From Escherichia phage EJP2, in sequence record OQ411014.1: DNA of 64,000 nucleotides; one strand, given 5' to 3'. Position numbers and translations under genes: made by a program. Below are positions 3,069 to 59,765 of this stretch, piece by piece. Below the pieces are notes generated by a model that ran no database searches, was not told the DNA's origin, and saw nothing but the letters and a program-made list of their open reading frames with translations. Position 1 is the first letter of the stretch. Every line of letters begins with the position of its first letter.

Positions 3069-3866
3069 ATGAGAATCAAAGATATCAAAGATTACTCTCA
3101 TGCGACGAGAGCAGAAATCATCAGTATAGCCAAAAGCATACATCCACAATTACTGAACATCATCCAGTACCGAAGCCTTCAGGACGAATCCCTGTGTGAT
3201 AATCGTCTTACTGATATGTTCAATGAACAATTGCGTTCTAAAATCGATGCATATAAAATGCAGATGAAAGCAATGCGTACTCAGTACTTAGTAGAGTTCT
3301 TCGAGGATTATCTTCTTCTCGATGAAGGTTCTCCGTACGAGCACGACATGTACTATGGAATCGATTTGAACACAGGTAAGAAGCTCTCTAAGGCTTCGGA
3401 CTTCACTAACCCTACGTACGATGTGATTTATGTTCCAGAGGTTCAGAACGTCGTTGAGTGCGTTAATGCTATGCATACGTCTCATACTGACATTCGTCCG
3501 TTCTGGAATAAGAATTCATACACGATGTACAGTACTACAGAGCAGCATCACATCTATCCGTGCAAGAACGCAGAAGAGTTCATCAAGAGTGCACGTAAAC
3601 AATTCAGTACTTTACCTCATGAAAATGCTATCATGGATTTAGTTAGTACTGCTGCTAAGGTTCGGGACTTTGATTACCCACTACACTTCGCTGCGTTATC
3701 GTCTGGTGATGAGCGTTCGGTATATAGCAGTACTGTAATGAAATCCATTCAACGTCATCAAATCTTACGTGACTTCTTAGAAAGTGTTTACAGTCCTGAT
3801 GAAGTGTACTATACTAGTTCAGTTACAGAAGATGGGACATACAAGTTCTTTCCAAGCAATTACTAA
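3069..3866 (+). CDS. hypothetical protein (265 aa)
   Basis: ORF track; AGGAG RBS. Confidence 0.7.
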   Translation: MRIKDIKDYSHATRAEIISIAKSIHPQLLNIIQYRSLQDESLCDNRLTDMFNEQLRSKIDAYKMQMKAMRTQYLVEFFEDYLLLDEGSPYEHDMYYGIDLNTGKKLSKASDFTNPTYDVIYVPEVQNVVECVNAMHTSHTDIRPFWNKNSYTMYSTTEQHHIYPCKNAEEFIKSARKQFSTLPHENAIMDLVSTAAKVRDFDYPLHFAALSSGDERSVYSSTVMKSIQRHQILRDFLESVYSPDEVYYTSSVTEDGTYKFFPSNY

Positions 3867-3878
3867 CGAGGATATATA

Positions 3879-4736
3879 ATGCGTTTGAGATTGGTTATTT
3901 CCAGTGCAGATGATCAGTTGTGGGTTAGGCCAGCGGACAGTACTAGACGTGTTCGTCTACCATCAGTTCATGGTCATACCTTTATTGTTGAGAACAAACA
4001 ATCAACATTAGAAGAAGCCTTTCGTCTATTCATTGGTGATTATGAATGTAAGCCATTCAATGACTATCATTGCACTTATGAAGTTGTTGATATTCCTGAT
4101 GAGTACATGTTCCAGTTGGCACTATTAGGCGTTCATGAGATGGACTTCCTTGTGTACAATAACGTCACTAAGAAAATGGCAATTTGTTCAGCAGTACATT
4201 TGGCTGTTGAATATACAATGGCAACTAATTCCAAGGTAGGTTATAACCAATCTTCTTATCGTAATAGTACTGCTACTACTAACGATGTTGTATTCCAGTG
4301 GGAGTACAAAAGTGACGAGTGGAAGACTAAGAACGATGATGTTACTGTTCATACAGTACTGGATAGTACTTATGATAATATCTATCAGTACATTGAGCCT
4401 AACCTAATGGAATGGGCTTGTAGGATGTACAGTAACATTGCTGATACTTTACGTCCTAGAGTTTATGGGTTCAAGAACTGGAAAAGTAAGATTGATACAT
4501 CTGATGAACCAGTAGCGTATGAAAAGTCCTACCCGTACTATAACTTCAGTGATTTATATTTCCTGTTCAATCAGTACTGCAACGATGAAGCGATGTTTTT
4601 GTACGCACAGGATGTAATCTCCGATTCAGCAATTGAGATATTGCGTGAACTGTACTGTCATTGTCAGTTTATCAGTACTAACATTCAGGTCGGCAAGGAT
4701 TACATAAAATTCTGTGATGAAAGAAGATCACGATAA
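3879..4736 (+). CDS. hypothetical protein (285 aa)
   Basis: ORF track; GAGGA RBS. Confidence 0.7.
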   Translation: MRLRLVISSADDQLWVRPADSTRRVRLPSVHGHTFIVENKQSTLEEAFRLFIGDYECKPFNDYHCTYEVVDIPDEYMFQLALLGVHEMDFLVYNNVTKKMAICSAVHLAVEYTMATNSKVGYNQSSYRNSTATTNDVVFQWEYKSDEWKTKNDDVTVHTVLDSTYDNIYQYIEPNLMEWACRMYSNIADTLRPRVYGFKNWKSKIDTSDEPVAYEKSYPYYNFSDLYFLFNQYCNDEAMFLYAQDVISDSAIEILRELYCHCQFISTNIQVGKDYIKFCDERRSR

Positions 4737-4737
4737 T

Positions 4738-4767
4738 TTGAGCATTCATAAAAAAATGTGATATAAT
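4738..4767 (+). promoter_or_regulatory. sigma70-type promoter driving RNA locus A
   Basis: TTGAGC (4738-4743), 18-nt spacer, TGTGaTATAAT (-10 hexamer 4762-4767); same architecture as the promoter at 58672. Confidence 0.65.
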
Positions 4768-4773
4768 TAGTAC

Positions 4774-5312
4774 TACGGATGGTTAGCTATCCGTATTTTA
4801 AATTTGAATGACCAGTACTACATACTGGTACGTTTTAACCCTGATTCACTCGAAAATGTAGAGGACAGTTGAGTACGCATTCAAGTACGTTCAGCAGAAG
4901 AAACCCGTTAGGTGTAGGCATAGTTTGTACCTCCCACGGCAATGTGGCTGATTAAACCATGAAGAGTAATACGATGACTCATGGCTTGCTTATGGCATGA
5001 TAGACATATAAGGATCGCTCCTTACCAAAATGTATAAGGGAATCTTATAAATTTTTGTAGGACTGATTAGAGGCTTACCCTTGATCCGTCCAAAATTTGA
5101 AGATACAGTACAGTACTGTTTATGTGGTAATGTATTGATGCGTGCTAAGACCACGACCGTTGCATAGAAACGCGATAGGAAGAAACAGGGCAACCCGCTT
5201 CCGTTCTTAATAGAAATTCGTAACATAAAATGATGACACATACCAGCGTCAAACTTTGTTCTTCCCTCCCTGTGGGGGGATGAAAATGAATCTACAAAAC
5301 CTCGTCAAATAA
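4774..5312 (+). ncRNA. candidate novel structured ncRNA, copy A (ends approximate)
   Basis: About 740 nt without a credible ORF and GC-richer than the flanks. Shares ordered blocks with 58708-59229, e.g. CCTGATYCACTCGAAAATGTAGAGGRCAG at 27/29 identity, GAAACCCGT, CACGACCGTTG, TACCAGCGTCA, CCCTCCC-tgt-GGGGGGA and ACCTCGTCAA. Hairpin GGAAG-15 nt-CTTCC (5178-5202) covaries with GCTGG-15 nt-CCAGC in copy B. Confidence 0.6.
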
Positions 5313-5324
5313 TAATAAGAAAGT

Positions 5325-5456
5325 ACTAAATCAATTAGAACGAACGCTAGTGAGTGATAATTGATTTAGTAACAGTAACGCTTCGCTAGAAGTGTTACTC
5401 GTTGTTTAAGAATAAAATAACTTAGTGAGTTTTGGTTCTTTTGTTGTTCACTAAGT
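5325..5456 (+). other. three strong stem-loops between RNA locus A and the next gene
   Basis: 12-bp stem 5325-5336/5359-5370; about 11-bp stem 5374-5399 with a GCTA loop; 9-bp stem 5420-5428/5448-5456; none followed by a U tract. Confidence 0.5.
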
Positions 5457-5476
5457 CCCTATAGAGAGAATATTAG

Positions 5477-5998
5477 ATGCCAGTGAAATATAAATCCCTT
5501 GATGGTGTTGTGAAGTACAAAGATCAAATGACTGAACAGGAATTACAAGAGTTCAGTGGGTACAAAATCGAGGGCAGTGCGGCACGTATTTCATACATTG
5601 AAGAGTACAAAGACGGAGATTTACTAGGGAAAATTATCCTTAGAATGACAAAAGCCCCAATCATATTTCGGGTAGTATACAAGGGATATAATGAAATTCG
5701 GTACAATACTGGAAGTGTTTCATCTAGATATTGCAGTAATGGTGATGTTTTTTGTGGTGAAATGCTGAGATATGATATGAATGGGAAGCTACAGGTTCGG
5801 GACTTTTTGAATCTAGGCAAGAACGTAACTGATGATATTGTTACTGAATTTGGTATCTCTGATATACTACAGCATGAATTTACAGAAGAAGAGTTATTCC
5901 GACTCTATATGAAATACGATTCAGGATTTAGATTCGTATCGGAATATAATAGAACTCCTGAACACTTCGATTCAGTACTGAAGGCGTGTTTGGAATAA
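5477..5998 (+). CDS. hypothetical protein (173 aa)
   Basis: ORF track; weak RBS. Confidence 0.65.
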   Translation: MPVKYKSLDGVVKYKDQMTEQELQEFSGYKIEGSAARISYIEEYKDGDLLGKIILRMTKAPIIFRVVYKGYNEIRYNTGSVSSRYCSNGDVFCGEMLRYDMNGKLQVRDFLNLGKNVTDDIVTEFGISDILQHEFTEEELFRLYMKYDSGFRFVSEYNRTPEHFDSVLKACLE

Positions 5999-7678: not shown

Positions 7679-8222
7679 TAAAGTTCAACACATATTGAAT
7701 TGTATGCAGAAGAAAGTTCACGTTCAGAATGATGTACTTGATATGCAAGTATATACAATTCTATCTTCAGAAGATGGCGTGTTTAGTTCAACTATTCGAT
7801 GCCGCAATAAAAATAGCGGTTCCTTTACTATTATGCTAAGGAAGAAGACTGAAATGATTACTGCTCCTAGTTCAGTACTGGGACAAAACGACACATACAA
7901 TACAGTTTACACTTCTCTTGCAATGAAGATGGCAATCTTCTGTACGCATGGTAATCCCCTACACATTGTTCGTGGGGATAGTACAATAGGTGATGATGTC
8001 GTTCAGGATTTGAGTGACGAAGGTTTCTTTCGCTTGTTATTGGCAGTTGACCCGAAGTATAATATCGATATAGATGGGTACAAGCAGGTTCTTGAAATGA
8101 TTTATGCATTCGAAGAAGTAGTACCTGAAGATTGGACTATTGTTATTAGCTCACCATTAGATAATTTACATTCAATAGATGTTGATTCTATCTATTCAGT
8201 ACTGAAGGATGTCGTAGTATGA
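7671..8222 (+). CDS. FQAS-motif family member (divergent)
   Basis: 8-nt overlap with upstream gene; SDEGFFRLLLAVDPKYNIDIDGY sits where the family motif occurs. Confidence 0.65.
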   Translation: MRDKVQHILNCMQKKVHVQNDVLDMQVYTILSSEDGVFSSTIRCRNKNSGSFTIMLRKKTEMITAPSSVLGQNDTYNTVYTSLAMKMAIFCTHGNPLHIVRGDSTIGDDVVQDLSDEGFFRLLLAVDPKYNIDIDGYKQVLEMIYAFEEVVPEDWTIVISSPLDNLHSIDVDSIYSVLKDVVV

Positions 8223-8788
8223 ATGCCGCAGAGTTTGTTAGAGCACTTGTTGGTTTAGCTAAAGTGAAAACTTATAGAGGAAATATCACTAAATCAAATT
8301 CGCATTTTGTTCCACGTAATGGTCGTGAACATCTATTCGTTGATTCATTACTCATCAAGGGTATCGATGCATATGAAGAAATATACATTTCTATAGATAT
8401 GTGTGATGGATTCTTGAATTCCATTGCAGTTCATACAAGAAATAGATATACTCATTTCTCTATGTACAGAAAAACGGCATACACAGAGTATGATAAGTAC
8501 GCAATGGAAGAAACCTCCCCAGGGCGTTTCCTTATGCTTTTTCACAATGAAATTACCGAGCGTGATTTAATCATGAATCACAAGGGTGAATTTATTGTGC
8601 ACATGGACAATGAAAGTGAAGTGTTCAGTACTTTATTAGTACATAACTTCGATATAGAAAAGTACAGAGAAATTCATGAAACCTATAAGTGCATTGATGA
8701 ACTTAAAACTGACCTCTCATTCAGTACATATGATACTAATTGTGGTCTGAATTTCGCAGCACTATATCAAATTATATGGAAGGCATAA
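8219..8788 (+). CDS. FQAS-motif family member
   Basis: ATGA overlap; motif ESEVFSTLLVHNFDIEKYREI. Confidence 0.7.
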   Translation: MNAAEFVRALVGLAKVKTYRGNITKSNSHFVPRNGREHLFVDSLLIKGIDAYEEIYISIDMCDGFLNSIAVHTRNRYTHFSMYRKTAYTEYDKYAMEETSPGRFLMLFHNEITERDLIMNHKGEFIVHMDNESEVFSTLLVHNFDIEKYREIHETYKCIDELKTDLSFSTYDTNCGLNFAALYQIIWKA

Positions 8789-9309
8789 TGACTGCACTAA
8801 ATGATTTCATGACTCTCAGTACTGAAATAGTATCTTCTACAAAGGGAGAAATCACAATCCCCCGTGATGATGTATATATTATACTAACACCAGGAATAGC
8901 AGAGTCCATAAAAGTATACGAAAATAATGATTCTTTACAAGTACTGTACATGCCACAAGATTATCTTTTTGTAAATTCTGATTTTACTTTACATCAATTT
9001 CCTACGTATAGTAATTTTCAACAACGTTTCCCAAGTGATAAAACAAAAGAAATAAAATACGTACAGTACGATAATAGTTTTAAAAGTCGTACTCATTTTA
9101 TCGCTTTAGAAACTGAAGAAGATATATTCAATGCTATGATAGTACATTCATTTGATATAAACGCAGCACTAGAATTGATGAGTGTATTGACTGAAGTACC
9201 GGAAGATGTAACAGGTATTATTACTATAAGAACTAAGTACAATGAAGAATTGTTACTAAAGTGCAACAGTATGATGCGAGATTATATTAGTAATAAGGAA
9301 AACACATGA
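8788..9309 (+). CDS. FQAS-motif family member
   Basis: Start taken at TAATG overlap (MTALNDFMTL); motif EEDIFNAMIVHSFDINAALEL; close paralogue of 9306..9836. Confidence 0.7.
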   Translation: MTALNDFMTLSTEIVSSTKGEITIPRDDVYIILTPGIAESIKVYENNDSLQVLYMPQDYLFVNSDFTLHQFPTYSNFQQRFPSDKTKEIKYVQYDNSFKSRTHFIALETEEDIFNAMIVHSFDINAALELMSVLTEVPEDVTGIITIRTKYNEELLLKCNSMMRDYISNKENT

Positions 9310-9836
9310 CAGTACTGAATGATTTTCTTAGAGATAGTAAGTACATTATTGATAATATTGCTGAAGAAATATCTATACCATCAATGGATGAGTTGATGAT
9401 GATATCAATGGACCCTGATGGTGGGTTGGTAAAAGTATATTACGATTTTGAACTGCACGTAATGTTCATGAAAAATCATTATGAACACGCTTCTGATATG
9501 TTGACACTTTATGATTTTGGGACGCATAAAAATTACCAACAACGTTTACCAGCAAACAAATCAAAGGATATGAAACTAAGTGTTTACAATTCTGCTGGTG
9601 TTACTATTCCGACTAAGATTTCTCTTGGTTCTGAAGAGGGAATCTTTTCTGCGGAATTAGTACATGATTCCAGTACTGAAGAAGCACTTGAAGTTATGCA
9701 AGTAATTTCTGAAGTACCTGACAGTACCAAAGGAATACTTACTATAAGAAATAAGTACAACGAACGATTACTTATAAAATGTAATGTGTTATTAGAACAA
9801 TATATACATGGAGTACTGAATGCAAATATGGTATAA
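9306..9836 (+). CDS. FQAS-motif family member
   Basis: ATGA overlap; MTVLNDFLRD; motif EEGIFSAELVHDSSTEEALEV; tail ILTIRNKYNERLLIKCN matches IITIRTKYNEELLLKCN of the upstream gene. Confidence 0.7.
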   Translation: MTVLNDFLRDSKYIIDNIAEEISIPSMDELMMISMDPDGGLVKVYYDFELHVMFMKNHYEHASDMLTLYDFGTHKNYQQRLPANKSKDMKLSVYNSAGVTIPTKISLGSEEGIFSAELVHDSSTEEALEVMQVISEVPDSTKGILTIRNKYNERLLIKCNVLLEQYIHGVLNANMV

Positions 9837-10113
9837 TGTAGTACAGAAGGATTGGGATGATAATGAAAAGACAGGGATGCGTTTCATTTCTGTTATCATT
9901 TCGAATGAAACTCGTTATGTTCTACGAGCGGATAAGAATGATGGCGTATGGGAATCATCTTTGTATCCAATGGGTTACAAATATTCTTTAGATGATGTTG
10001 CAAGTCTAGCTGATTCTATGATAGACTCAGTAAAGATTATGAAGTTCCTTGAACGTCCAGAGCTAACAACGGCTGATGATGTACAGGAATTTTTGGCGAC
10101 TTTACAAGGGTAA
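9820..10113 (+). CDS. hypothetical protein (97 aa)
   Basis: ORF track; overlaps upstream gene end. Confidence 0.6.
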   Translation: MQIWYNVVQKDWDDNEKTGMRFISVIISNETRYVLRADKNDGVWESSLYPMGYKYSLDDVASLADSMIDSVKIMKFLERPELTTADDVQEFLATLQG

Positions 10114-10115
10114 TT

Positions 10116-10634
10116 ATGAAACTTTCTGACTTCATTGCACGCAAAGATTCGTTCAAAAATGGCGTTTTTCATCAAGTAGAAGGTACTGACTTTACATATA
10201 TCAGTACTAGTATTGGATTGGGAGAAGCATCGAGTATCGTATCTTTTTATACAAAAGAAACACTTGCTATATGTGATTTTGTATTTTCAACTAAACATTA
10301 TAATACCACAGACAATGCAATTATGTTCGATGCAAACTCAGTGAATGATGCTTGGTGTGTATATTTTTCTTATCCAAATACAAATGAAAATATAGTATTA
10401 TTCTTGGATGATTCAGAAGATAACGAGCCACCAGTACTGGTAGATATCTCATCAGAAGCGGATATCTTCACTAAAGCAGTAGCATTCGATATAAATTGTG
10501 ATGGTATTGAAGAGTACATTTCGATTTCCAAAGCAATCGAAAAAATTGCCAAGGATTTGGGATTACCGGAATTTACTCTAGAACTTCGTCACAATAAACT
10601 GAAGGAATTTCTTGAGATATTTGAACTATGCTAA
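10116..10634 (+). CDS. FQAS-motif family member
   Basis: MKLSDFIARK; motif EADIFTKAVAFDINCDGIEEY. Confidence 0.65.
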   Translation: MKLSDFIARKDSFKNGVFHQVEGTDFTYISTSIGLGEASSIVSFYTKETLAICDFVFSTKHYNTTDNAIMFDANSVNDAWCVYFSYPNTNENIVLFLDDSEDNEPPVLVDISSEADIFTKAVAFDINCDGIEEYISISKAIEKIAKDLGLPEFTLELRHNKLKEFLEIFELC

Positions 10635-10873
10635 TAATTGACAATTTAGACATACCTGGTGAATTCGAAGTACTCGAAGGGATTAGTATGAGTACGTTCG
10701 TAATAAAAAGTACTGAAGCGTGGGTGAAAAAACACTTGACTGAATTAGGGTTATCCGATACACTACACTTCTTTAGTTACAGTACTGGAGATTTAGTTTT
10801 AGAATCGACAAGAGCGAGGATTACGAGTTTAAGTTCTAAGCGATTTTATGTTGAATTTATGGAAGGAGAATGA
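10628..10873 (+). CDS. hypothetical protein (81 aa)
   Basis: ORF track; overlapping starts and stops on both sides. Confidence 0.55.
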   Translation: MLIIDNLDIPGEFEVLEGISMSTFVIKSTEAWVKKHLTELGLSDTLHFFSYSTGDLVLESTRARITSLSSKRFYVEFMEGE

Positions 10874-11442
10874 CAATGATCAATAGTAATACTTATATGC
10901 GTTACCTACGTATGGGCGTTTCTTTAGTTCCAGTTCGTGGAAAAGATTCAGTAGACCAAGAGTTCGCATATGCGATGCCTATTGATGGTGTACAGTACGT
11001 ACTGAACGATGGTGGTATGTACGAAGATACAAATGAGTCCGAAGACATGTCTGATATGCTTCAGAACTTATTAGCAGTAGTCAATAGTGACCGTCATGAT
11101 AAAGTAAAACGCGTTACTACGTTCCTGGAAAAGAATCTACACAAAACTGTTTGGTGTGAGATTGCTTCTGGACCACAACTGGGTTTGCTATTCGGGAACG
11201 CAGATGGTACAATTTGTCAATTAGCGATGGATTTCCGTTCTCCAGAGCAGTTCCAAGAGTACCGTGCATCTATCATCGAACACTTTGCAGCACTCGGTCT
11301 TGACGAATCTAAGATTCCAGAAATTAGTCCAATGGATACATTTGTACTGATTCCTGAGAGTCCAGCATTCGAAGCACTATTCAGTACTTTCCAGTGCTTA
11401 GGGATTGAAGTAAGTCCAGCAGATGTAGATGATGAAGAATAA
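10870..11442 (+). CDS. acidic hypothetical protein (190 aa)
   Basis: ORF track; ATGA overlap. Confidence 0.65.
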   Translation: MTMINSNTYMRYLRMGVSLVPVRGKDSVDQEFAYAMPIDGVQYVLNDGGMYEDTNESEDMSDMLQNLLAVVNSDRHDKVKRVTTFLEKNLHKTVWCEIASGPQLGLLFGNADGTICQLAMDFRSPEQFQEYRASIIEHFAALGLDESKIPEISPMDTFVLIPESPAFEALFSTFQCLGIEVSPADVDDEE

Positions 11443-11520
11443 TTAGTACTGTATATGTATACACCTTTACGATAAAGTCTTAAATATCTGAAGGTGTATA
11501 TTGTCATAGGAGGAAAAGTT

Positions 11521-11724
11521 ATGAAATATTCATTGATTCGTTTAGGATTATTTGTTACAGTAGTCTTAATGGTTGTGATTGGTTCAGTACTGACACAGTT
11601 ATACCCTGCGTTTATTTTACTCGCTGGGATTTTTGGTTCAGTACTGATTGGGCTGGTGGGTTGGGCTTTGCAGCTTACCATCGATGCGGAATTAGAAAAG
11701 AGGATTAAAGATAAAGATGAATGA
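11521..11724 (+). CDS. small membrane protein (67 aa)
   Basis: AGGAGG RBS before ATG 11521; two hydrophobic helices. Confidence 0.65.
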   Translation: MKYSLIRLGLFVTVVLMVVIGSVLTQLYPAFILLAGIFGSVLIGLVGWALQLTIDAELEKRIKDKDE

Positions 11725-11890
11725 TAAAGGTGAAGAGGAAGTCTTCTGTACTGCGTGCAATCTGTACGTACAACCTGAATACAGTTCGTACTCATGTATT
11801 TCACAGTACGGTTCATCAGTGTTCTGTAAAGAACTCTGTCCTATTTGTTATAAACAATTTCGGGAATTTTTAGTCGATGCAGACATTTGA
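11717..11890 (+). CDS. small zinc-ribbon protein, 57 aa (below ORF-track cutoff), TRASH/FCS-like C-x2-C-x22-C-x3-C
   Basis: MNDKGEEEVFCTACNLYVQPEYSSYSCISQYGSSVFCKELCPICYKQFREFLVDADI; fills an otherwise unexplained gap; overlaps both neighbours by a few nt. Confidence 0.5.
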   Translation: MNDKGEEEVFCTACNLYVQPEYSSYSCISQYGSSVFCKELCPICYKQFREFLVDADI

Positions 11891-12566
11891 TAATTCAATC
11901 AACATCAGTACTGAACTATTAAAAGTACTAAAAGTGATTTATAGTTTCAGTACTGAAGAGTTGTTGAAAGTACTACCAGAGAGTGTATCTAAACGAGAAA
12001 ACGAATATAAGTGCGTTTTTGATATACAACAAGATGTACAATTTCAAGTTCAAATTAACTACAAAGACGATTTGAATTATCGCAGTACTAATATTTCCAT
12101 TCTTGATGTGCGTCGCGGCGTAACAATGAATGGGACAATTCCATGTATCTTAGCTTTAGGTACATACGCAGCGAATAAATCAGAACCATCTATCATTTGT
12201 AACTACTCCCAAAGTAAAGAATTTATGGTTCGATATCATTCATTGACCGAAAATCCTGCTTATACAAATGTCAGTACTGATGGCAATTCACTTAGAATGA
12301 ATCGAATCAAGTACTACGAGATTGATGATATTTTTGATGAAGGTGCAGTATTCCAACATTCAATTATGCATGAGTTCGACCCTAATAGTATTCTGTTATT
12401 ACAGAAGATGGTCACTGTTGGGGATTACATCAGTACTAAATGTAATTCCAATAAAATCCTTGTCTCGGCTGATGAAGATAAGTTAGATGGTCTGTTGGAT
12501 TCACTTCTAAAGATTGATGTTGTTAGTAAATTCATTTCCTTATATGAAGGTACAGAATGGTCATAG
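11877..12566 (+). CDS. FQAS-motif family member
   Basis: Motif EGAVFQHSIMHEFDPNSILLL. Confidence 0.7.
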   Translation: MQTFDNSINISTELLKVLKVIYSFSTEELLKVLPESVSKRENEYKCVFDIQQDVQFQVQINYKDDLNYRSTNISILDVRRGVTMNGTIPCILALGTYAANKSEPSIICNYSQSKEFMVRYHSLTENPAYTNVSTDGNSLRMNRIKYYEIDDIFDEGAVFQHSIMHEFDPNSILLLQKMVTVGDYISTKCNSNKILVSADEDKLDGLLDSLLKIDVVSKFISLYEGTEWS

Positions 12567-13180
12567 CCAATAAAGGTTTAGAAATCATTGAAATTGCACC
12601 GGATGAAGTTCAAATGGAAGTTGAAGTAATGTATCCGTGCAACATTGAACAGTACTGCAAACAGGGATTACAGTACTTAGAAGAAATGCAAGTACTACTT
12701 GATTCTCCTGATTGTATCGATAATTATACCAAATACACAACTGTAACCAGAACTACACCAGAATTGGAATTGATTGGTATTCGATATTGCAACACACGTC
12801 TCCCATCAATTATTACTACAGTTAAATTTACTGAAGTAATGTTGCTGGAAACATTTAGATGGCCTAAAACGTTACAAAGTCATTTCAATTCAATACGTTT
12901 TGGTGAAGATGAATACATTATCATGTGTGAAGATCCTAAGTCCTACAAATATGTAGTGATGGTCGAGCAAGATGAAGTATGCACAATTGAAGATATCAGA
13001 GACGAAAGTTCTTTATTTCAGGCTTCATTAGTTTCTGAATTAGATCCGTGTATACAGGAGTATCTCATCAAACATCACGAACTGTACTTGCGTGCAATTA
13101 GTAATGAGAACAAAGAGATTACTACTCTATGTACTACTCTGGCAGGTGGTGATTACTACGCAGAGAGGCAGTACTTATGA
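12557..13180 (+). CDS. FQAS-motif family member
   Basis: Motif ESSLFQASLVSELDPCIQEYL. Confidence 0.7.
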   Translation: MVIANKGLEIIEIAPDEVQMEVEVMYPCNIEQYCKQGLQYLEEMQVLLDSPDCIDNYTKYTTVTRTTPELELIGIRYCNTRLPSIITTVKFTEVMLLETFRWPKTLQSHFNSIRFGEDEYIIMCEDPKSYKYVVMVEQDEVCTIEDIRDESSLFQASLVSELDPCIQEYLIKHHELYLRAISNENKEITTLCTTLAGGDYYAERQYL

Positions 13181-13716
13181 ATGCCTTAGAACATATTGTA
13201 AAATACTTCAGTACTGCACAACCTAATGGGTATGCGTTGTTTCATGCAATGTTTCATTATGAACGAGAACCACTAGCAATTGAGCGTTATTATCAAAACG
13301 AGAAAACGCACTTCTTGATTCATGTTCGGGTCGGTTCAAAGATTGAAACTCTAAAAATGTACTATAATCACAAAGAATATCCGAAGAAAATTATAATGAT
13401 TCAATCGTCACCTACAAATAGTTTTATACATTTGATGAGTAATTATAAGACACAATTTTTAGATGATGCCAATAGTAATGTGTGTATTATGGGCGTTGAG
13501 GGAAAGGAATATAACTTCAATGCATTTGATGAATGTGCATTATTCCAGGCCAGTACTGTATGTGATATTGATGTGGATTTCATTTCAAAATCTATGTTGA
13601 CATTACAGAATATTTCGGATAGTATTAGTAGTGTTGTTACCTTACAAGGAACCAAAGGTGTAATCGATGAACTTTGTAATCTCAGGATTGATTCGATTAT
13701 GCGATTAGCTTCATAG
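13177..13716 (+). CDS. FQAS-motif family member
   Basis: ATGA overlap; motif ECALFQASTVCDIDVDFISKS. Confidence 0.7.
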   Translation: MNALEHIVKYFSTAQPNGYALFHAMFHYEREPLAIERYYQNEKTHFLIHVRVGSKIETLKMYYNHKEYPKKIIMIQSSPTNSFIHLMSNYKTQFLDDANSNVCIMGVEGKEYNFNAFDECALFQASTVCDIDVDFISKSMLTLQNISDSISSVVTLQGTKGVIDELCNLRIDSIMRLAS

Positions 13717-13771
13717 TAATAGATTCAAAAAAATTTATAAAAGTGCAAATAATCACAAGGAGTGTGAATAT

Positions 13772-14506
13772 ATGTTAGATCGTATAAAATTTGCCCAGGA
13801 GATGGCGAATGAGCTAAACAAATCAAATTTCCAAACTGTATCACCTATTATGGCTGAGTATGCTACTGCATATGCAACAGATGGAGTTCAGTGTGGACAG
13901 GCGAATATGTTAGCGGACGTGTACAGTACTGTGCAGAGTAAGCAATTCTCTGTTAAGACGTACAAAGATAAATTCGTATCTTCATTCATGAAGGGTGAGA
14001 TTGCAGAAGATCGTGAGTTCACAGATCCTATCATTGAGCGTAGGATTTCTGGGGTGGCGAATCCGAATGCTGATCCATCGTTAGTCTTTGAGGAAGTACT
14101 GAATGATATTCGAGACAATGAACGCAGAAGTCTAAACCACTACGGTATTAATTCCACTGGAACAGTACTGTTAGGATTCAGCGAAGATGATGATTATTTT
14201 TACTTTCGTCTAACTGAATATGATTATGTGTATGATGCTCCCGCTTCAGTACAAGAGAAGACCTTCACAGAACGTAGTAAAAACTACCTAAAACATACAG
14301 GAAATCGTTGCGGAATCGAATGCTACAACACTGAAGGTGTTATGGTGTACGAATGGGTTCACCCGAACAATCAGGCTTATACACGCTGTCTGAAGAAGCG
14401 GTACGACCTACGTGATGCTGATTCTATGTATTTCAAAATCAAGAAGCAGAAGTACACCAGACCTGATGATAATGCATTGTTGGATATGGTTAGTATTCAC
14501 TTCTAA
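13772..14506 (+). CDS. hypothetical protein (244 aa)
   Basis: ORF track; AAGGAG RBS. Confidence 0.7.
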   Translation: MLDRIKFAQEMANELNKSNFQTVSPIMAEYATAYATDGVQCGQANMLADVYSTVQSKQFSVKTYKDKFVSSFMKGEIAEDREFTDPIIERRISGVANPNADPSLVFEEVLNDIRDNERRSLNHYGINSTGTVLLGFSEDDDYFYFRLTEYDYVYDAPASVQEKTFTERSKNYLKHTGNRCGIECYNTEGVMVYEWVHPNNQAYTRCLKKRYDLRDADSMYFKIKKQKYTRPDDNALLDMVSIHF

Positions 14507-14515
14507 ATCAATTAT

Positions 14516-14546
14516 GCAGTACTGCGATTGTAGTACTGCTTTTTTC
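14516..14546 (+). terminator. intrinsic terminator built from two AGTACT motifs
   Basis: GCAGTACT-gcgattgt-AGTACTGC followed by TTTTTTC. Confidence 0.75.
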
Positions 14547-14556
14547 TGGAGATGCT

Positions 14557-15111
14557 ATGAATAATCTTGAGTTCGTTAAACACTTGGCTAATAAAGTTGA
14601 TACAATCGCACAGAAACATATTGACACTCAAAGTTCAATACCTATAAAATTAGCGATTCCTCATGATAATATGGAACTGTTCGATAGATTCTTTTCTGTT
14701 CGAGGCCGCCACGATAAAGATAGATATCTTTTACTCGACACTGACCGGAATGCTTTTCAGTACTCAACACCTACGTTTCCTGGAATTTTCATGAAAGTGT
14801 CTGATGGATTGTACCTTACGTACTCACCACCAGATATATCACAGACTATGATTGGATTGGATTCTAGGGTATTACTATTTCAGCCACGCAATCCAAGTGA
14901 TGTATATGATCCGTATGAATTCTTGACTGAAGAAATGCACTTCCAGGCATCTACAGTACTGGATATTCCGAGCATAGAAACTCTAAGAGAAATGCTTGAT
15001 ATTGTTGAGTTTTTGATTGAAAGTGAATTCAAATTTAGATGTTCAATGGACTACGATGATTACCAGAGTATTCAGATTGGTCGTTTTTATAATTACGCAA
15101 TGCAGGAATAA
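14557..15111 (+). CDS. FQAS-motif family member
   Basis: MNNLEFVKHL; motif EEMHFQASTVLDIPSIETLRE. Confidence 0.7.
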   Translation: MNNLEFVKHLANKVDTIAQKHIDTQSSIPIKLAIPHDNMELFDRFFSVRGRHDKDRYLLLDTDRNAFQYSTPTFPGIFMKVSDGLYLTYSPPDISQTMIGLDSRVLLFQPRNPSDVYDPYEFLTEEMHFQASTVLDIPSIETLREMLDIVEFLIESEFKFRCSMDYDDYQSIQIGRFYNYAMQE

Positions 15112-15115
15112 CCAA

Positions 15116-15727
15116 ATGAAGAATCTAGATAAATTTGAAGACCTTATCAGTACTGCAAAAGCGTTCGGGTATTATAATTTCATCCAACGCTTTGGCCTCA
15201 AAGAAGAAAGTAACCGTTTCTGTAAAGTATATCGTGGTATCTGTACTGAAGATTCGGAGTATCAGTTCTTGATTGGAACTATGCGTTCTAGTGGTGGGAT
15301 TACATACATCGTTGAAGATAATAAAACAGGTGAGTACTTGAACATGTTCGCTCTTCGGGCAGAAGGTGAATCTGAACTTACTGCGATGTTTAAAGACTGG
15401 ACACGACTATCATACAAATACGATAAGTTCAACATCTACAACTACGAAACCAAGAAGATGGAAGTTGTACCGAACATTGACATGTCTGAAGATGAACATT
15501 TTCAGTTCATGCTATTGCATGATATTCCAGATTATGATACAGTACAGTCAGTACTGAAATATCATAAAGAAGTTTCACCAATGCTCAAAGAACATAAGCT
15601 ATTCAATATCATCACGTACACGATGCCTGATTTTGATTTCACAAAGATGAAAATCAAACCTGAAGTAATTGACACGTGTATGGATTTGATACCTGAATCA
15701 TCTTTATACAAACACAAGGATATATAA
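15116..15727 (+). CDS. FQAS-motif family member
   Basis: Start moved to ATG 15116 (MKNLDKFEDL, AGGA RBS) because the ORF-track start 15017 lies inside the upstream gene; motif EDEHFQFMLLHDIPDYDTVQS. Confidence 0.7.
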   Translation: MKNLDKFEDLISTAKAFGYYNFIQRFGLKEESNRFCKVYRGICTEDSEYQFLIGTMRSSGGITYIVEDNKTGEYLNMFALRAEGESELTAMFKDWTRLSYKYDKFNIYNYETKKMEVVPNIDMSEDEHFQFMLLHDIPDYDTVQSVLKYHKEVSPMLKEHKLFNIITYTMPDFDFTKMKIKPEVIDTCMDLIPESSLYKHKDI

Positions 15728-16866
15728 TGACTACAATGCGTGAACTATATGACGATTTGAATGCATTAGTATCTGATGCTTTCTATCACAAAGATTTCGT
15801 TAGTAAAGGCTCTGGTACGTACCGGATTTTCTCGTACCGTCTAGCGAGTGCTGCTGACTTCGAAGAACGTAATGCCCTTGAGTCACGTGGTATTATGTTC
15901 GAGATTGATGCAGATACTAAAGAGCCAATTCGTATTGCTTCTCGGACTATGAAGAAGTTTTTCAATGCAGGGGAAACCCAAGAATTACAGTTCAAGAAGG
16001 ACGTACCATTCAGTACTATCAAGTGCGTAATGCCTAAGTTGGATGGTTCTGTTATTGCAACCTTCATGGACAATGATGGAATTATTCGTACTAAATCAAA
16101 CTCTTCGTTGGAGTCTGAGCACGCGTATTACAGTACTGAAATGATTCACGCCAATGATAAGTTACACGATGCAATCATTTGTGCTGAAGCTGCTGGTTAT
16201 ACTGTAATTATGGAATTTACTTCACCTGAGTACCGGATTATTCTTCCTTACCAGAAAGATGAACTAACTGTATTGCGTATCATTCATCGTGAAAGTGGTG
16301 AAAGCATTATGGGTTCTGACTTGAAGGAGAAGTTCCCAGTACTGTATGAGTTTTCGGTATTTGGTGATAAAGACATTCATGAATCATTCCCTGTTCGCAG
16401 TACTTTAGTACAGAGTATTGCTGCTGTTCGTGAAATGGAAGAGATTGAGGGATATGTTGTAGTACTACAAGATGGCACTACATTCAAGCTCAAGACGGAT
16501 TGGTATTGCAATTTACATTTTACCAAAGATAGTATTATCATTGATTCTCGACTATTCAAGGCAGTACTGGATGGTAGTTCAGATGATTTACGTCAATTGT
16601 TTGAAAATGATGAATATGCACTAAAAAAAGTCGAAAAAATGGAAAATTTGATTTTTTTGTGCTATAATAAGTTAGAAGAGGATGTGACTACTTTTTACGA
16701 AAAGTACAAGCACCTTGATCAAAAAACGTATGCTATGAAGGTGTTGGGTGAATTATCGAAAGATATGAACCGACAAGGACTTGCATTCAACTTGTACAAT
16801 GGTAAACCTGTTGATTACAAAGAAGTACTACTAAAGTACATGAAGAACGTGTTAGAAGGATTCTGA
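15727..16866 (+). CDS. rnlA: RNA ligase 1 (T4 RnlA-like)
   Basis: N-terminus GTYRIFSYRLAS...RGIMFEID...PIRIASRTMKKFFN parallels T4 Rnl1; nucleotidyl-transfer motif I KLDGS; about 379 aa, as in T4 Rnl1. Confidence 0.9.
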   Translation: MTTMRELYDDLNALVSDAFYHKDFVSKGSGTYRIFSYRLASAADFEERNALESRGIMFEIDADTKEPIRIASRTMKKFFNAGETQELQFKKDVPFSTIKCVMPKLDGSVIATFMDNDGIIRTKSNSSLESEHAYYSTEMIHANDKLHDAIICAEAAGYTVIMEFTSPEYRIILPYQKDELTVLRIIHRESGESIMGSDLKEKFPVLYEFSVFGDKDIHESFPVRSTLVQSIAAVREMEEIEGYVVVLQDGTTFKLKTDWYCNLHFTKDSIIIDSRLFKAVLDGSSDDLRQLFENDEYALKKVEKMENLIFLCYNKLEEDVTTFYEKYKHLDQKTYAMKVLGELSKDMNRQGLAFNLYNGKPVDYKEVLLKYMKNVLEGF

Positions 16867-16895
16867 CATAGTAATAGCTGAACAGGGAGTAGTTC

Positions 16896-17135
16896 ATGGC
16901 TAACAAACCGAAGTACCAATTGAAGAAGGGTGAAGTACGTACACCGGAAGAGCAGAGAAGGATTTTAGAAGAAATCGATTCTTTACAGCATGAACGCTCC
17001 CGCAAAGGAGTTAAGAAAAGTGCTAAGAGGATTGCAAACACATTTGGAGTCTCAAGTACTGCATATAAAAAGGAACGTAAGCCCAAAAAGAAAAGAGACA
17101 GAATATACGATATAGGAAGATATGCTCGTGAATGA
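16896..17135 (+). CDS. small basic protein, possible HTH DNA-binding
   Basis: K/R-rich; SAKRIANTFGVSSTAYKK resembles a helix-turn-helix. Confidence 0.55.
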   Translation: MANKPKYQLKKGEVRTPEEQRRILEEIDSLQHERSRKGVKKSAKRIANTFGVSSTAYKKERKPKKKRDRIYDIGRYARE

Positions 17136-17343
17136 TACAGTTATTCTTGAAACAGTAATGTATAAAGATAAAACTTATTATGCGGTGACTAACATATCCA
17201 GTGCTCAACGCACTAAGTACGTTCAACAACTAAAGGCAGTAGGTGATACTGTCTTTGTTATTGACAATTTGTTATTCATTGATGAAATGGGTTTATTCAA
17301 TATTAGTTTATTCGACACAGAAACAGCATTTTCAATTCGCTAA
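17122..17343 (+). CDS. hypothetical protein (73 aa)
   Basis: ORF track; overlaps upstream end. Confidence 0.55.
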   Translation: MLVNDTVILETVMYKDKTYYAVTNISSAQRTKYVQQLKAVGDTVFVIDNLLFIDEMGLFNISLFDTETAFSIR

Positions 17344-17360
17344 CAACTAGGAGATATATC

Positions 17361-17582
17361 ATGAAAGTTCAAATTATGCATAGTGTTGTCCAGGACATGT
17401 CTGTGGTGAAGTTTAGTACTCTAAGTGATTATTTCCGTTGTATCGAATTTATGGATACTAACGGTATACTGTGGGAACCAGTGAAGTACAGTTCCAGAAA
17501 CGATACCGCTAGTATTCGCGTTGATGAGGTAGCGTTGAATAAAATTTGTAAACGATATGGAGTTCAGAAATGCCTAAACTAG
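17361..17582 (+). CDS. hypothetical protein (73 aa)
   Basis: ORF track; GGAG RBS. Confidence 0.6.
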   Translation: MKVQIMHSVVQDMSVVKFSTLSDYFRCIEFMDTNGILWEPVKYSSRNDTASIRVDEVALNKICKRYGVQKCLN

Positions 17583-18499
17583 TACTGACAGTTGGATTGC
17601 CTGGGTGCGGGAAAAGTACTTGGGCTACAGAAGAAGTAAAGAAATCCAAACGCAAAACTGTCATTCTAAATCGTGATGATATTCGTGAAACGATGTTCGG
17701 TGGTAACTGGGAATATCGTTATAGTAACGAGAACGAAAAATACGTCCAGAATACTCTCGCTTTTCAAGCCCAAGAAGCAGTGAAAAATGGCTGGGATATT
17801 ATCGTTGCAAATACTAATCTCAACCCAAAAGAACAAAACATGTGGAGTACTTTTGCAAAGGAGAATTCATATACCTTAGTACATCAGGACTTCTTCAAGG
17901 AGTTCAAGAAAGGTAAATCCTTTGTGCATGATTACTTCGCAATCAATGCTTTCGTGAAACATTGTAAAGAACGTAACCTAAAACGTTTGAAGTCTGTTCA
18001 AGAAAGTGTAATTGACCAAATGGCAACTTCGTACTATTACAGTACTGTTACGCCTCCACCAGTGATTGAAGGTGATGGTCTAAAATATTACATCGTAGAT
18101 ATTGACGGAACTCTAGCACATATGTTAGATTATCGTTCACCCTATGATGAAACAAAAGTTCATCTTGATGTACCTGATGAGTTCGTAATTTCAGTACTGC
18201 ACGCTCTTGTAAAAGACCCGTCAGTACGTATTATCCTCATGAGTGGTCGTCACGTCACCTGTAAAGAGCTAACACAAGAATGGTTAGCGAAGCATTCAGT
18301 ACCGTATCATGAGCTTCATATGCGTGCTGCGGACGATGTACGAGGGGACGATGTGGTGAAATATGAGTTGTATATGCAAGAAGTATACAACAAAAACAAA
18401 CGAGTCCAAGTTGTGTTCGATGACCGTCAAAAAGTTGTGAACACATGGCGTGAGTTGCTTGGCCTCAAAACCTTCCAGGTACAGCCTGGAAATTTCTAG
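17570..18499 (+). CDS. pseT: polynucleotide 5'-kinase/3'-phosphatase (T4 PseT-like)
   Basis: N-terminal P-loop GLPGCGKSTWA and NRDDIR; TNLNPKE; C-terminal HAD phosphatase DIDGTLA ... DDR..VV..W; collinear with T4 Pnkp. Confidence 0.9.
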   Translation: MPKLVLTVGLPGCGKSTWATEEVKKSKRKTVILNRDDIRETMFGGNWEYRYSNENEKYVQNTLAFQAQEAVKNGWDIIVANTNLNPKEQNMWSTFAKENSYTLVHQDFFKEFKKGKSFVHDYFAINAFVKHCKERNLKRLKSVQESVIDQMATSYYYSTVTPPPVIEGDGLKYYIVDIDGTLAHMLDYRSPYDETKVHLDVPDEFVISVLHALVKDPSVRIILMSGRHVTCKELTQEWLAKHSVPYHELHMRAADDVRGDDVVKYELYMQEVYNKNKRVQVVFDDRQKVVNTWRELLGLKTFQVQPGNF

Positions 18500-39971: not shown

Positions 39972-40001
39972 TTGAGACAAAACTCAATACTATGATATAA
40001 T
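39972..40001 (+). promoter_or_regulatory. sigma70-type early promoter
   Basis: TTGAGA (39972-39977), 18-nt spacer, TGaTATAAT (39996-40001). Confidence 0.7.
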
Positions 40002-55021: not shown

Positions 55022-55333
55022 ATGCAATACAGAACACCAGTACTGATCAATCGATACAAAAGTAAAGACTTTGATGTTTACATTGGTCGTGGGACAAAAT
55101 GGGGAAACCCGTTCCCAATCGATGAAGCATGTGGTCAAACTCGCCTAATCGTTATTGAAATGTACAGACACCAAATGTATGAATGGCTAGAAAATGGAAC
55201 CATCACTGTTCAGGATATTTTGGATTTATCGGGAAAAACCATTGCATGTTCTTGTGCACCAAAGGCATGTCATGGAGATATAATCATAGAGGTATTCAAT
55301 GAAATAGTGAGTATGATGAATGCAGGAACATAA
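55022..55333 (+). CDS. DUF4326-family protein
   Basis: DVYIGRGTKWGNPF ... GKTIACSCAPKACHGDII, the family-typical pattern. Confidence 0.7.
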   Translation: MQYRTPVLINRYKSKDFDVYIGRGTKWGNPFPIDEACGQTRLIVIEMYRHQMYEWLENGTITVQDILDLSGKTIACSCAPKACHGDIIIEVFNEIVSMMNAGT

Positions 55334-57927: not shown

Positions 57928-58293
57928 ATGACAACTAAAATTTTCCCTCAGAGTCTTATGAAGGATCTATCTTACGGTTACGGTACTACTAAGGTCATGG
58001 GTGATTATAATGAAAAGACTGATTCCTTCGCACCGGATATCGAATATGAAGTCTTACACAATGAACAGTGTAATACTACTCGTTGGAACAGTGTTCATGA
58101 TTTAGTTTTTCTTGACAAGAGTACTGGGAAAACGTATCATACACAGTATGAAGTTGGTCTTACCGAATCGCAGTATTTGAGTGCATTTGACTATGATAAA
58201 GAAGGTGTCGAATGTACTGAAGTACAAACGTGGGAAGAGCAAGTTACCTATACAGTGTTAAAATGGCGGGATAAAAATGATTCAAGATATTGA
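57928..58293 (+). CDS. hypothetical protein (121 aa)
   Basis: ORF track; GGAG RBS. Confidence 0.65.
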   Translation: MTTKIFPQSLMKDLSYGYGTTKVMGDYNEKTDSFAPDIEYEVLHNEQCNTTRWNSVHDLVFLDKSTGKTYHTQYEVGLTESQYLSAFDYDKEGVECTEVQTWEEQVTYTVLKWRDKNDSRY

Positions 58294-58666
58294 TTTTTCT
58301 AATTTGGAATACGTCAGTGCAGTCAAAAATATCAGTACTGAAGATGATATCAAATACGTTACTACTACGATTACGTTCTTGCGTAAAGAAGATAGTATTG
58401 CTCATCTAACTGGACTTGAGAAGACTTTCGCTGAACTCAAATTACAAGAAGAATCAAAGTACATCAAACTTGCTTCGGTGTACACTACGGTTGAAGATGT
58501 TATCCAGAAAGATGAGCCAATTAAGGTGATTTTTTCTGGGATAAATAAAAAGTACCGGCAGGTTACTCGTTCTGAAACGGATGAGAACATGCACATTATT
58601 CTGAATGACATTCAGTTCGTAGATATGGTTTTTGACCGTTCTGAAAATAAACATGTTTACATGTAG
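58277..58666 (+). CDS. hypothetical protein (129 aa)
   Basis: ORF track; overlaps upstream end. Confidence 0.6.
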   Translation: MIQDIDFSNLEYVSAVKNISTEDDIKYVTTTITFLRKEDSIAHLTGLEKTFAELKLQEESKYIKLASVYTTVEDVIQKDEPIKVIFSGINKKYRQVTRSETDENMHIILNDIQFVDMVFDRSENKHVYM

Positions 58667-58671
58667 TATTT

Positions 58672-58701
58672 TTGAGATGAATGAAAATTTTGTGATATAA
58701 T
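58672..58701 (+). promoter_or_regulatory. sigma70-type promoter driving RNA locus B
   Basis: TTGAGA (58672-58677), 18-nt spacer, TGTGaTATAAT (58696-58701); the TGTGATATAAT string is identical to that at 4757-4767. Confidence 0.65.
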
Positions 58702-58707
58702 GTATAG

Positions 58708-59229
58708 TACGGATAACACCTATGTTGAATGTCTTTGATAAACAGAACCTGATCCACTCGAAAATGTAGAGGGCAGATGAGTAGAACATTCACTACGAAG
58801 TGCAAATGAAACCCGTCAGTAATAAAGCGTAAGTGCGGTCATACAAACGAGACGTAAGACACACGCGACACGGCAAAGCGGCACTATAAAAGCGATAAGA
58901 AAACATATTCGCTCTTGATAGACTTATGAGGCATACTCACCCAGTTGAAAGGGAGTCTCTTTACGGAGAGACAGCAGTATTTGTTGCTGAATTAGCAAGT
59001 ACTGTAAGCGTGTGAGGAACACGACCGTTGTATGCAGACTGTAGTAGCTGGAAACAGGACAACCCGCCAGCGTTGCTACTTTTATTTGTACGGGAAAGAT
59101 CCGTCCAAAAAGTAGTGAATCTACAAATTCAGATTGGTAAGACTACCAGCGTCAGGATATTCCTGATTTTTTTTCGGCCCTCCCTTGTGGGGGGATGGAA
59201 TTGGATCAACAAACCTCGTCAAGTATAAT
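58708..59229 (+). ncRNA. candidate novel structured ncRNA, copy B (ends approximate)
   Basis: About 690-nt ORF-free gap. Shares conserved blocks with copy A (58748-58776, 58808-58816, 59020-59030, 59144-59154, 59178-59195, 59213-59222). Hairpin GCTGG-AAACAGGACAACCCG-CCAGC (59047-59071) covaries with copy A. Confidence 0.6.
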
Positions 59230-59261
59230 ATGAATAGTATTAGTACTTAATAATTCAAATG

Positions 59262-59332
59262 AATTGAGAGATATGAGATGAGCGATAGCGAAATCGAATA
59301 TGTCTCAATTCTTGGCTTACGCAGTAAGCCAA
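59262..59332 (+). other. two strong stem-loops between RNA locus B and the next gene
   Basis: 13-bp stem (1 mismatch) 59262-59274/59298-59310; 9-bp stem TTGGCTTAC-gca-GTAAGCCAA 59312-59332; same arrangement as downstream of copy A. Confidence 0.5.
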
Positions 59333-59354
59333 CGAAACATTACAGGAGCTTATC

Positions 59355-59765
59355 ATGAGTCAGTTAGAACCAATTGTAGGATCTTATAATATTTTCTTCA
59401 AAGATACCAATGTAACACCAAGCAGTTCATATAACCAAAATACACGTGTAAGTACTTACACAATTGAGCATTTAAGTACTGGCAAGAATTTCAGTACTGA
59501 ATACGGGAAGTACGTCCAGAAGAACTCCGATTGTTTTCAGCTATTTCGTAACTCCCCACGTCAAGATATTTTACTAATCACAAACGAAGTGGAGTTCCGT
59601 CAAAGATCTCTTGATTTCCCTAATGCAGTTCATTATACTATTAGTGATATCGACTTCATCAAAGTACTTGTTCATTACGACGAAGTATCAAAGGTAAGTA
59701 CTTTTGAGGATTTGTCTTTTGATGAAGTAATTGCACTCAAGGATAAACTATATGAAAGCAAGTGA
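59355..59765 (+). CDS. hypothetical protein, weak FQAS-family resemblance
   Basis: AGGAG RBS; EVEFRQRSLDFPNAVHYTISDIDF at the family motif position. Confidence 0.6.
   Translation: MSQLEPIVGSYNIFFKDTNVTPSSSYNQNTRVSTYTIEHLSTGKNFSTEYGKYVQKNSDCFQLFRNSPRQDILLITNEVEFRQRSLDFPNAVHYTISDIDFIKVLVHYDEVSKVSTFEDLSFDEVIALKDKLYESK

Follow-up and report, generated by a model that had tools for sequence, protein, structure and literature searches.

A locus at positions 58672–59354 of a 64,000-nucleotide (nt) stretch of Escherichia phage EJP2 (sequence record OQ411014.1; this whole stretch is called the window) raises the question of what kind of element it encodes and where its product ends. An earlier note on this DNA had described the locus, here copy B, as a second version of an RNA locus, copy A (4738–5460), with its 3' half in another order and with an internal hairpin that might end the transcript. 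Copy B belongs to a previously undescribed family of large structured non-coding RNAs, in which each member has its own putative sigma-70-type extended -10 promoter. The family RNA is under strong purifying selection, and occurs as multiple paralogues per phage and on bacterial chromosomal islands. We consider it probable that copy B specifies a stand-alone, promoter-driven and pseudoknotted RNA, that the product is formed by read-through of the internal hairpin, and that this product folds into a particle that acts in trans.

The strings listed in the earlier note were all recovered at its coordinates (58400–59600 and 4500–5700 were read). Block searches and the family profile show that the 64 kilobases (kb) of the window hold two family copies only; the profile matches copy B at 58726–59224 with an E-value of 1.4e-112 and copy A with an E-value of 1.7e-95 (nhmmer). 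The core of copy B has a GC content of 0.43–0.47, compared with 0.33–0.38 in its flanks.

A search with blastn found 70 phage records that match both copies, at 3–5 places per record and nearly all in unannotated gaps. The matching phages are Rak2/121Q-like jumbo phages of 320–386 kb, with hosts in Escherichia, Klebsiella, Salmonella, Erwinia, Yersinia, Serratia, Cronobacter, Pectobacterium and 'Xanthomonas'. Two pattern scans yielded 62 IMG/VR loci from this phage group, with 4–6 per complete genome, and a metagenome scan added 72 further loci. Clustering separates at least 10 paralogue lineages; the closest relative genome has five, two of which correspond to copies A and B of the window. 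The family core measures ~440–575 nt, or ~630–680 nt when two 3' hairpins are included. With a 6-kb query, the RNA was the sole stretch recovered from Salmonella phages by megablast (89% identity), and is thus more conserved than the flanking genes.

Conserved structure of the RNA

A structure alignment was assembled from 41 non-redundant full-length sequences, copy B included. RNAalifold predicted 68 pairs on this alignment, 42 of them with compensatory changes, and four pseudoknots (PK1–PK4) were added by mutual-information and antidiagonal scans. The final model consists of 83 pairs, 16 helices and the four pseudoknots. Standard pairs are formed in 96.5% of the model cells, versus 38.3–42.1% in controls in which the partners were slid by 1–3 columns; 58 of the 83 pairs are changed on both sides (22–29 in the slid controls), and the covariation score is 0.572 (0.07–0.12 when slid). 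None of 500 shuffles attained the observed values. Compensatory substitutions therefore exceed the controls, as in a structured non-coding RNA, and the 41 additional sequences that were fitted to the alignment retain 69–82 of 77–83 pairs. This count bears out the reading of the region as an RNA locus with covarying hairpins and long-range, pseudoknot pairings. The features of the two copies are as follows.

58672–58701, + strand: copy B promoter, with the -35 element TTGAGA, an 18-nt spacer and the extended -10 element TGaTATAAT
58707–59226, + strand: conserved RNA core of copy B, ~520 nt, from the predicted start site to the CGUCAA tail
58725–58793, + strand: PK1, in which 5' UUGAAUGU (58725–58732) pairs with the P3 loop ACAUUCAC (58786–58793)
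58799–58925, + strand: P4 (58799–58803/58881–58885), P5 (58813–58816/58870–58873), the variable hairpin P7 (58891–58913) and PK4 (58876–58878/58923–58925)
58974–59005, + strand: hairpin P11, the loop of which (UGAAUU, 58988–58993) forms PK2 with AAUUCA (59126–59131)
59009–59071, + strand: P12 (59009–59023), the invariant CGACCGUUG, the 5' strand of P14 (59040–59044) and hairpin P15 (59047–59071)
59077–59115, + strand: peripheral hairpin module of copy B, with the 3' arm GAUCCGUCCAAAA (59098–59110), inserted between P15 and the 3' strand of P14
59116–59131, + strand: 3' strands of P14b and P14 (CUACA, 59121–59125), then the PK2 strand (59126–59131)
59151–59174, + strand: optional internal hairpin GUCAGGA-uau-UCCUGAU followed by U8, terminator-like
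59180–59226, + strand: hairpin P17 (CUCCCU/GGGGGG) and the conserved 3' tail AUGGAAUUGGAUCAACAAACCUCGUCAAGUAU
59261–59332, + strand: two conserved 3' hairpins (59261–59311 and 59312–59332), which follow the core in nearly all members
4738–5460, + strand: copy A, with promoter (4738–4767), P1 (4774–4795), core (4773–5312), module (5059–5103, before P11) and 3' hairpins (5324–5456)

PK1 encloses P2 (58749–58776) and the 5' arm of P3 (58781–58783; 3' arm 58794–58796). In the family alignment it is formed by 5' CUGAAUGA with the P3 loop, and seven of its eight pairs change on both sides. All six pairs of PK2, whose partner strand lies just 3' of P14, change on both sides, and 98.8% are paired. PK4 has the family form AUG/CAU in 35 other sequences and AAG/CUU in copy B alone, a private double compensatory change. 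PK3 joins GUUGU (59027–59031) to ACAAC (59059–59063), which is located inside the 15-nt P15 loop AAACAGGACAACCCG; in the family as a whole, GUUGY follows CGACC and pairs with RCAAC of the invariant 15-nt P15 loop. Only one PK3 pair varies among the 41 aligned sequences, and the helix is compensated in extra paralogues (GUUAC/GUAAC in loci L135, L138, L144 and L145; GUCAU/AUGAC in L139). The CCCTCCC/GGGGGG hairpin described by the earlier note is present and corresponds to P17. Its G strand is invariant while the partner varies between C and U, giving C:G or U:G pairs, a pattern that makes sense for a + strand transcript only and points to selection at the RNA level.

Two helices suggested by RNAalifold were not retained in the model. 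The 5'–3' closing helix (columns 55–57 with 739–741) was dropped because PK1 uses the same 5' bases and covaries strongly, and P13 (GUU with GAC) was replaced by PK3 in view of the compensation in the five paralogues named above.

The structural data also bear on the nature of the locus. Several dispersed copies with a strong promoter recall the origins of phage T4, and open reading frames (ORFs) of 66–111 amino acids overlap the region, as might be expected of a DNA-level element (a replication origin, recombination or packaging site) or of a small coding region. However, 58 compensated base pairs and strand-specific G:U pairs belong to an RNA, and the broken frames of the translated matches, together with one-base indels between orthologues, indicate that the region is not coding. 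A DNA element or a coding region in place of an RNA gene is thus scarcely credible.

Two blocks of the 3' part, ACCAGCGUCA and AACCUCGUCA (59143–59152 and 59213–59221; columns 641–650 and 733–741), change together, to AUCAUCGUCA and AAUCUCGUCA, from one paralogue clade to another. They have no mutual complementarity, and no common partner was found for them.

Comparison of copies A and B

The earlier note had proposed that the 3' half of copy B is rearranged relative to copy A, either by shuffling of domains between the paralogues or by a different wiring of the pseudoknot and long-range partners. The alignment of the two copies is colinear, with all 16 core helices and the four pseudoknots in the same order, and comparison with orthologous loci in related phages shows the same colinearity, with a module position that varies across the family. 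The displacement of GATCCGTCCAAAA is real: in A it is found at 5083–5095, 69 nt before the invariant CGACCGTTG, and in B at 59098–59110, 79 nt after it. The string constitutes the 3' arm of a self-contained peripheral hairpin, and this hairpin is retained in orthologues with other sequences, such as GGAUAC-CU-GUAUCC in L027. Of 82 members, 43 have the module before P11 (A-type) and 27 have it after P15, ahead of the 3' strand of P14 (B-type); it occupies both sites in 7 and neither in 5. L043, L058 and L134 are loci with the module at both sites. Both sites adjoin the PK2 junction, and the module therefore probably fills an equivalent three-dimensional place, which would make the two sites equivalent in the fold.

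The second displaced string, the identical 11-mer GAATCTACAAA, does not represent a rearranged homologous block. In A (5288–5298) it belongs to the 3' tail, the B counterpart of which is GGATCAACAAA at 59203–59213, whereas the B copy (59117–59127) covers the 3' sides of helices P14b and P14 and runs into the first bases of the PK2 strand. The two positions are non-homologous, so that no block has moved, and judging from the alignment the match is best explained as chance. Shuffled domains or partners wired differently in A and B, which were suggested by GATCCGTCCAAAA on opposite sides of the core and by the different neighbours of the 11-mer, are consequently very improbable. They are already contradicted by the colinear full alignment, and the only displaced part is one peripheral module that is self-contained and can occupy both sites at once.

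Apart from the module, which follows P15 in B and precedes P11 in A, copy B has an extra short hairpin with a U-run between the CGUCA block and P17. Two peripheral hairpins of the 5' part, P1 and the hairpin that follows the PK1 strand, are present in B orthologues and absent from copy B. The 5' end of copy B, GUACGGAU (58707–58715), equals the 5' arm of P1 in copy A. It is also the complement of AUCCGU, a string found in both modules (59098–59104 in B); orthologues do not share this. The likeness may have arisen by gene conversion between the two copies, or may reflect an alternative long-range pairing. P1 itself (4774–4795, + strand; also at the 5' ends of many paralogues) begins at the predicted start site and has a U-run after it. 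It was scored as terminator-like by the scan, and could serve to stabilise the 5' end or to terminate the upstream gene.

The genes and proteins that flank A and B are unrelated, in agreement with the proposal that the duplicated unit is the RNA locus itself, comprising promoter, RNA and 3' hairpins. Copy B is preceded by a gene (58277–58666, + strand) for a DUF7325 protein (E = 3e-36). Phages Munch and GAP32 have a short ORF directly upstream of their own B-type copy.

Promoter and 3' end

The copy B promoter consists of TTGAGA at 58672–58677, TG at 58693–58694 and TATAAT at 58696–58701. It scores 11 of 12 matches plus the TG extension in the promoter scan, and has the spacing (16–18 nt) and the TG one base upstream of the -10 element that define the sigma-70 extended -10 class. 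The copy A promoter is TTGAGC-18-TATAAT with TG. The common promoter design pointed out by the earlier note is thus confirmed, with the qualification that N18 is the spacer to TATAAT and not to TGTGATATAAT; the common 5' start context is found as well, with TACGGAT after the promoter in both copies. The promoter is kept in 39 aligned family members with the consensus TGaAAC-N12-tTgTGgTATAAT. TGnTATAAT occurs in almost every member, 325–400 nt upstream of the core, with the -35 consensus TGaAAC. The same -35 variant, as TGAAACG, was described as a 'divergent RpoD-like' promoter class for phages CBB and GAP32 (PMC5259590). Two further promoters of like design (TGGAAA or TGAGAC as -35 element, TGnTATAAT) at 16640–16668 and 39973–40001 (+ strand), upstream of protein genes, fit the same class.

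A second promoter had been suggested at 59201–59229. The string TTGGAT-N17-TATAAT exists, but its -35 element matches TTGACA at only three of six positions and there is no TG, where at least four of six matches per hexamer, or a TG, are expected of a promoter. The scan of the region did not call it, and any promoter there would be weak. The block is conserved as a piece of the RNA tail.

The internal hairpin TCAGGA-tat-TCCTGA with T8 (59152–59174), read by the earlier note as an intrinsic terminator or attenuator, is the sole terminator-like match in the region, where 0.3 are expected. It conforms to the layout of an intrinsic terminator (a G+C-containing stem of 5 bp or more, a loop of 3–8 nt and an adjoining U-tract), with seven pairs, a 3-nt loop and an adjoining T8, and a folding free energy of -7.9 kcal/mol (z = -3.8). 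The hairpin covaries in B-type orthologues, and the same design, with covarying stems (-4.2 to -8.7 kcal/mol) and at least five T, is present at this position in 39 of the 82 members. Were it the true 3' end or a regulated attenuator, the B RNA would measure ~470 nt and the downstream part would be a separate element or DNA signal. Several observations disagree with this. Unlike an intrinsic terminator, the hairpin is embedded in a conserved structured RNA, its stem is weak, with only three G:C pairs, and structure continues downstream. Few parts of the RNA are as conserved as P17 and the tail, which holds for all members, including 37 that have no T-run, and the C/U variation opposite the invariant G of P17 reflects selection on the + strand RNA.

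The paralogue L042 of the closest relative genome provides a further argument. Located on the + strand, with minus-strand genes on both sides, it has the internal hairpin and U-run, yet continues through P17, the tail and two hairpins to end at a bidirectional CCAGC/GCUGG terminator, ~150 nt after CGUCA. This terminator is stronger than the internal hairpin and is located ~230 nt further on. The layout indicates that the family is a stand-alone RNA gene and that the internal element is not its normal end. An intrinsic terminator that closes a unit leaves no selected transcript beyond it, and such a transcript is evident here. Because conserved RNA structure continues beyond 59174, the full-length RNA must read through. 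Of the earlier proposal only partial termination is left; the hairpin with U8 would be at most a pause site or a leaky terminator, and we regard a true 3' end or regulated attenuator at 59151–59174 as unlikely.

The two long hairpins downstream of the core fold strongly (59261–59332, z = -6.4; 5324–5456 in copy A, z = -5.7), and the second covaries at three pairs. The similar long hairpins after the two copies had been described by the earlier note. The 3' boundary is placed beyond the last conserved block. The first 3' hairpin bears the apical motif GAACGNAGUGA in many paralogues (L003, L005, L011, L013, L042 and others) and in a Serratia fonticola copy, and the hairpin downstream of the S. 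fonticola chromosomal copy bears the apical motif GAACGUAGUGA. The downstream loop motif GAACGNAGTGA proved not to be shared by intergenic regions of the window in general.

The region scan found no terminator between 59332 and the gene that starts at 59355, so the copy B RNA may be co-transcribed with that gene; read-through into it, or processing, is likely. In B-type orthologues, moreover, the next gene has its ribosome-binding site and start codon inside the second 3' hairpin. Both features are compatible with a cis-acting 5' leader (riboswitch- or thermosensor-like) for gene 59355 and, in copy A, for gene 5477. A leader is, however, expected to precede a consistent class of same-strand genes. 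Here the downstream genes are unrelated between A and B, and differ even among B orthologues; L042 has no same-strand gene downstream and ends at its terminator; and in the bacterial islands that were examined the next gene is on the opposite strand (L054–L057, L060, L068) or converges on the RNA (L058). With different genes downstream, and none at all in some units, a leader role is decidedly improbable.

Chromosomal islands, known RNAs and possible function

The same pattern is matched in bacterial DNA, namely in the complete chromosome of S. fonticola GTA-SR07, in Enterobacter chinensis, Serratia sp. 2723, an Enterobacteriaceae isolate and metagenome-assembled genomes (MAGs). These copies (L054–L060) are full-length, with E-values of 1e-80 to 1e-88 (nhmmer). 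The island copies keep 74–80 of 81–83 pairs at 68–80% identity to the nearest aligned member, and retain the TGAAAC-type promoter. They are located, as single copies, in AT-rich stretches at the edge of DNA with the GC content of the host, near tyrosine or large serine recombinases, CI-like HTH-S24 (helix-turn-helix) repressors or ParB-like genes. A further full-length copy (L134; 372 bits) occupies an unannotated gap at 11944–12545 of Escherichia coli LR-29-1 (NZ_AP027515.1). The island, of ~10 kb (7959–18303), is inserted between ffs and ybaA, and carries an IS3-disrupted integrase and a DuOB-DUF488-mSLOG/DUF4326 operon. Matches were obtained in 2 of 5426 complete E. coli genomes, and no match in plasmids. 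A tblastn comparison of the island ORFs with the 64-kb window and short phage loci returned only frame-broken translations of the RNA and one DUF4326 domain.

The window ORF at 55022–55333 (+ strand) encodes a DUF4326-like protein that shares 34% identity (E = 3e-14) with its DUF4326 counterpart on the E. coli island. DUF4326 is the sole protein common to the islands and the phage loci compared, and the same gene lies ~6 kb from the B-type RNA in L026 and L032. The L058 copy is at 3690–4230 (- strand), and the S. fonticola island abuts a duplicated rof gene. An island-type copy (L059; E = 2e-83) on a 2.8-kb contig of a 'Clostridium sp.' MAG (DPOH01000171.1) is ~80% identical to the phage paralogue L011, as are the island copies of Enterobacteriaceae, and the contig is probably mis-binned.

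In the stand-alone RNA reading, the RNA would be made early or mid infection by the host RNA polymerase. The functional product would be the read-through RNA, with P17 and the CGUCA tail and probably also both 3' hairpins, and may act in trans as a folded particle, either RNA-only or protein-bound. Its target would also be available in uninfected or lysogenic cells; a host factor and the RNA assembly of the phage itself are candidates. The same RNA is under structural selection on islands that share only the DUF4326 domain with the jumbo-phage loci compared, which makes a host-side target probable.

Several points weigh against this reading. The start site, 3' end, abundance and stability of every member are inferred from sequence. 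The hairpin with U8 looks like an intrinsic terminator, and many transcripts may stop there; after 59332 there is no terminator before gene 59355. The search for shared proteins covered 64 kb of this phage and short loci.

The island copies, which lie beside integrases and repressors, point to a role in phage–host or phage–island conflict. A more far-reaching proposal is that this new ornate RNA class is a folded machine, a ribozyme or an RNA-only or RNA–protein assembly of paralogous subunits, that is central to Rak2-like infection, and that the island copies with their TGAAAC promoter are decoys or hijackers in conflict with phages. On the islands, a dominant-negative subunit could then exclude phages by an RNA-based mechanism, or a satellite could make use of the RNA. 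We give this proposal little credence.

Bacterial and phage RNAs of more than 400 nt with dense tertiary structure are rare, and comprise ribozymes, ribonucleoprotein cores and unsolved classes such as OLE, GOLLD and ROOL. At gathering score, Rfam 15 has no match in the whole window, and at E-values up to 10 both copies return only chance snoRNA or leader matches of 12–21 bits. The RNA thus belongs to no Rfam 15 family, including GOLLD, ROOL, OLE, RNase P, group I/II introns, tmRNA and 6S. A literature search, which included genome and overview papers, found no description of it. The class is rated new, as judged by sequence and Rfam models. A relationship to ncRNA001 and ncRNA002, two of the RNA-seq-supported non-coding RNAs of the related Pseudomonas phage PA5oct (PMC7318152), was considered and rejected, the region having none of the family's conserved blocks and no nhmmer match. 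A resemblance of short strings (CACGACC, AACCCGGC) to E. coli RNase P RNA found no support from the Rfam model.

The nearest known things, by kind and not by homology, are GOLLD and ROOL, large ornate phage and prophage RNAs that have been studied by cryo-electron microscopy (cryo-EM; PMC12286853). They are likewise non-coding phage or prophage RNAs of 500–800 nt, rich in helices and pseudoknots and more conserved than the neighbouring genes. By contrast, neither model matches the EJP2 copies even at E-values up to 10, the hosts of GOLLD and ROOL are Firmicutes and those of the present family Enterobacterales, several diverged paralogues occur per genome, and the 64-kb window has no transfer RNA genes.

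The cores of RNase P RNA and of group I introns carry lineage-specific peripheral helices at different places in the primary sequence. RNase P types A and B and group I introns are analogous to the present RNA, which also combines a pseudoknotted core with peripheral helices whose sequence position differs by lineage. The EJP2 locus differs from them in that it has no Rfam match and no exons or splice sites. It does not interrupt a host gene, being intergenic between unrelated complete ORFs, has its own promoter and is not matched by intron models. The pRNA of phage phi29 is also a phage-encoded structured RNA that is transcribed from its own promoter, and acts in trans as a multimer. It differs in size (~120–174 nt), is single-copy and has no sequence or model similarity to the present RNA; in addition, a packaging role would not explain the copies on islands without structural genes.

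Members of the family are present in cultivable phages of E. coli, Salmonella, Klebsiella and Erwinia (such as 121Q, PBECO4, Munch, RaK2), which makes genetics, Term-seq and cryo-EM feasible, and the several diverged paralogues per genome provide unusually rich covariation. The 600–700-bp unannotated gaps of these genomes would, accordingly, be RNA genes.

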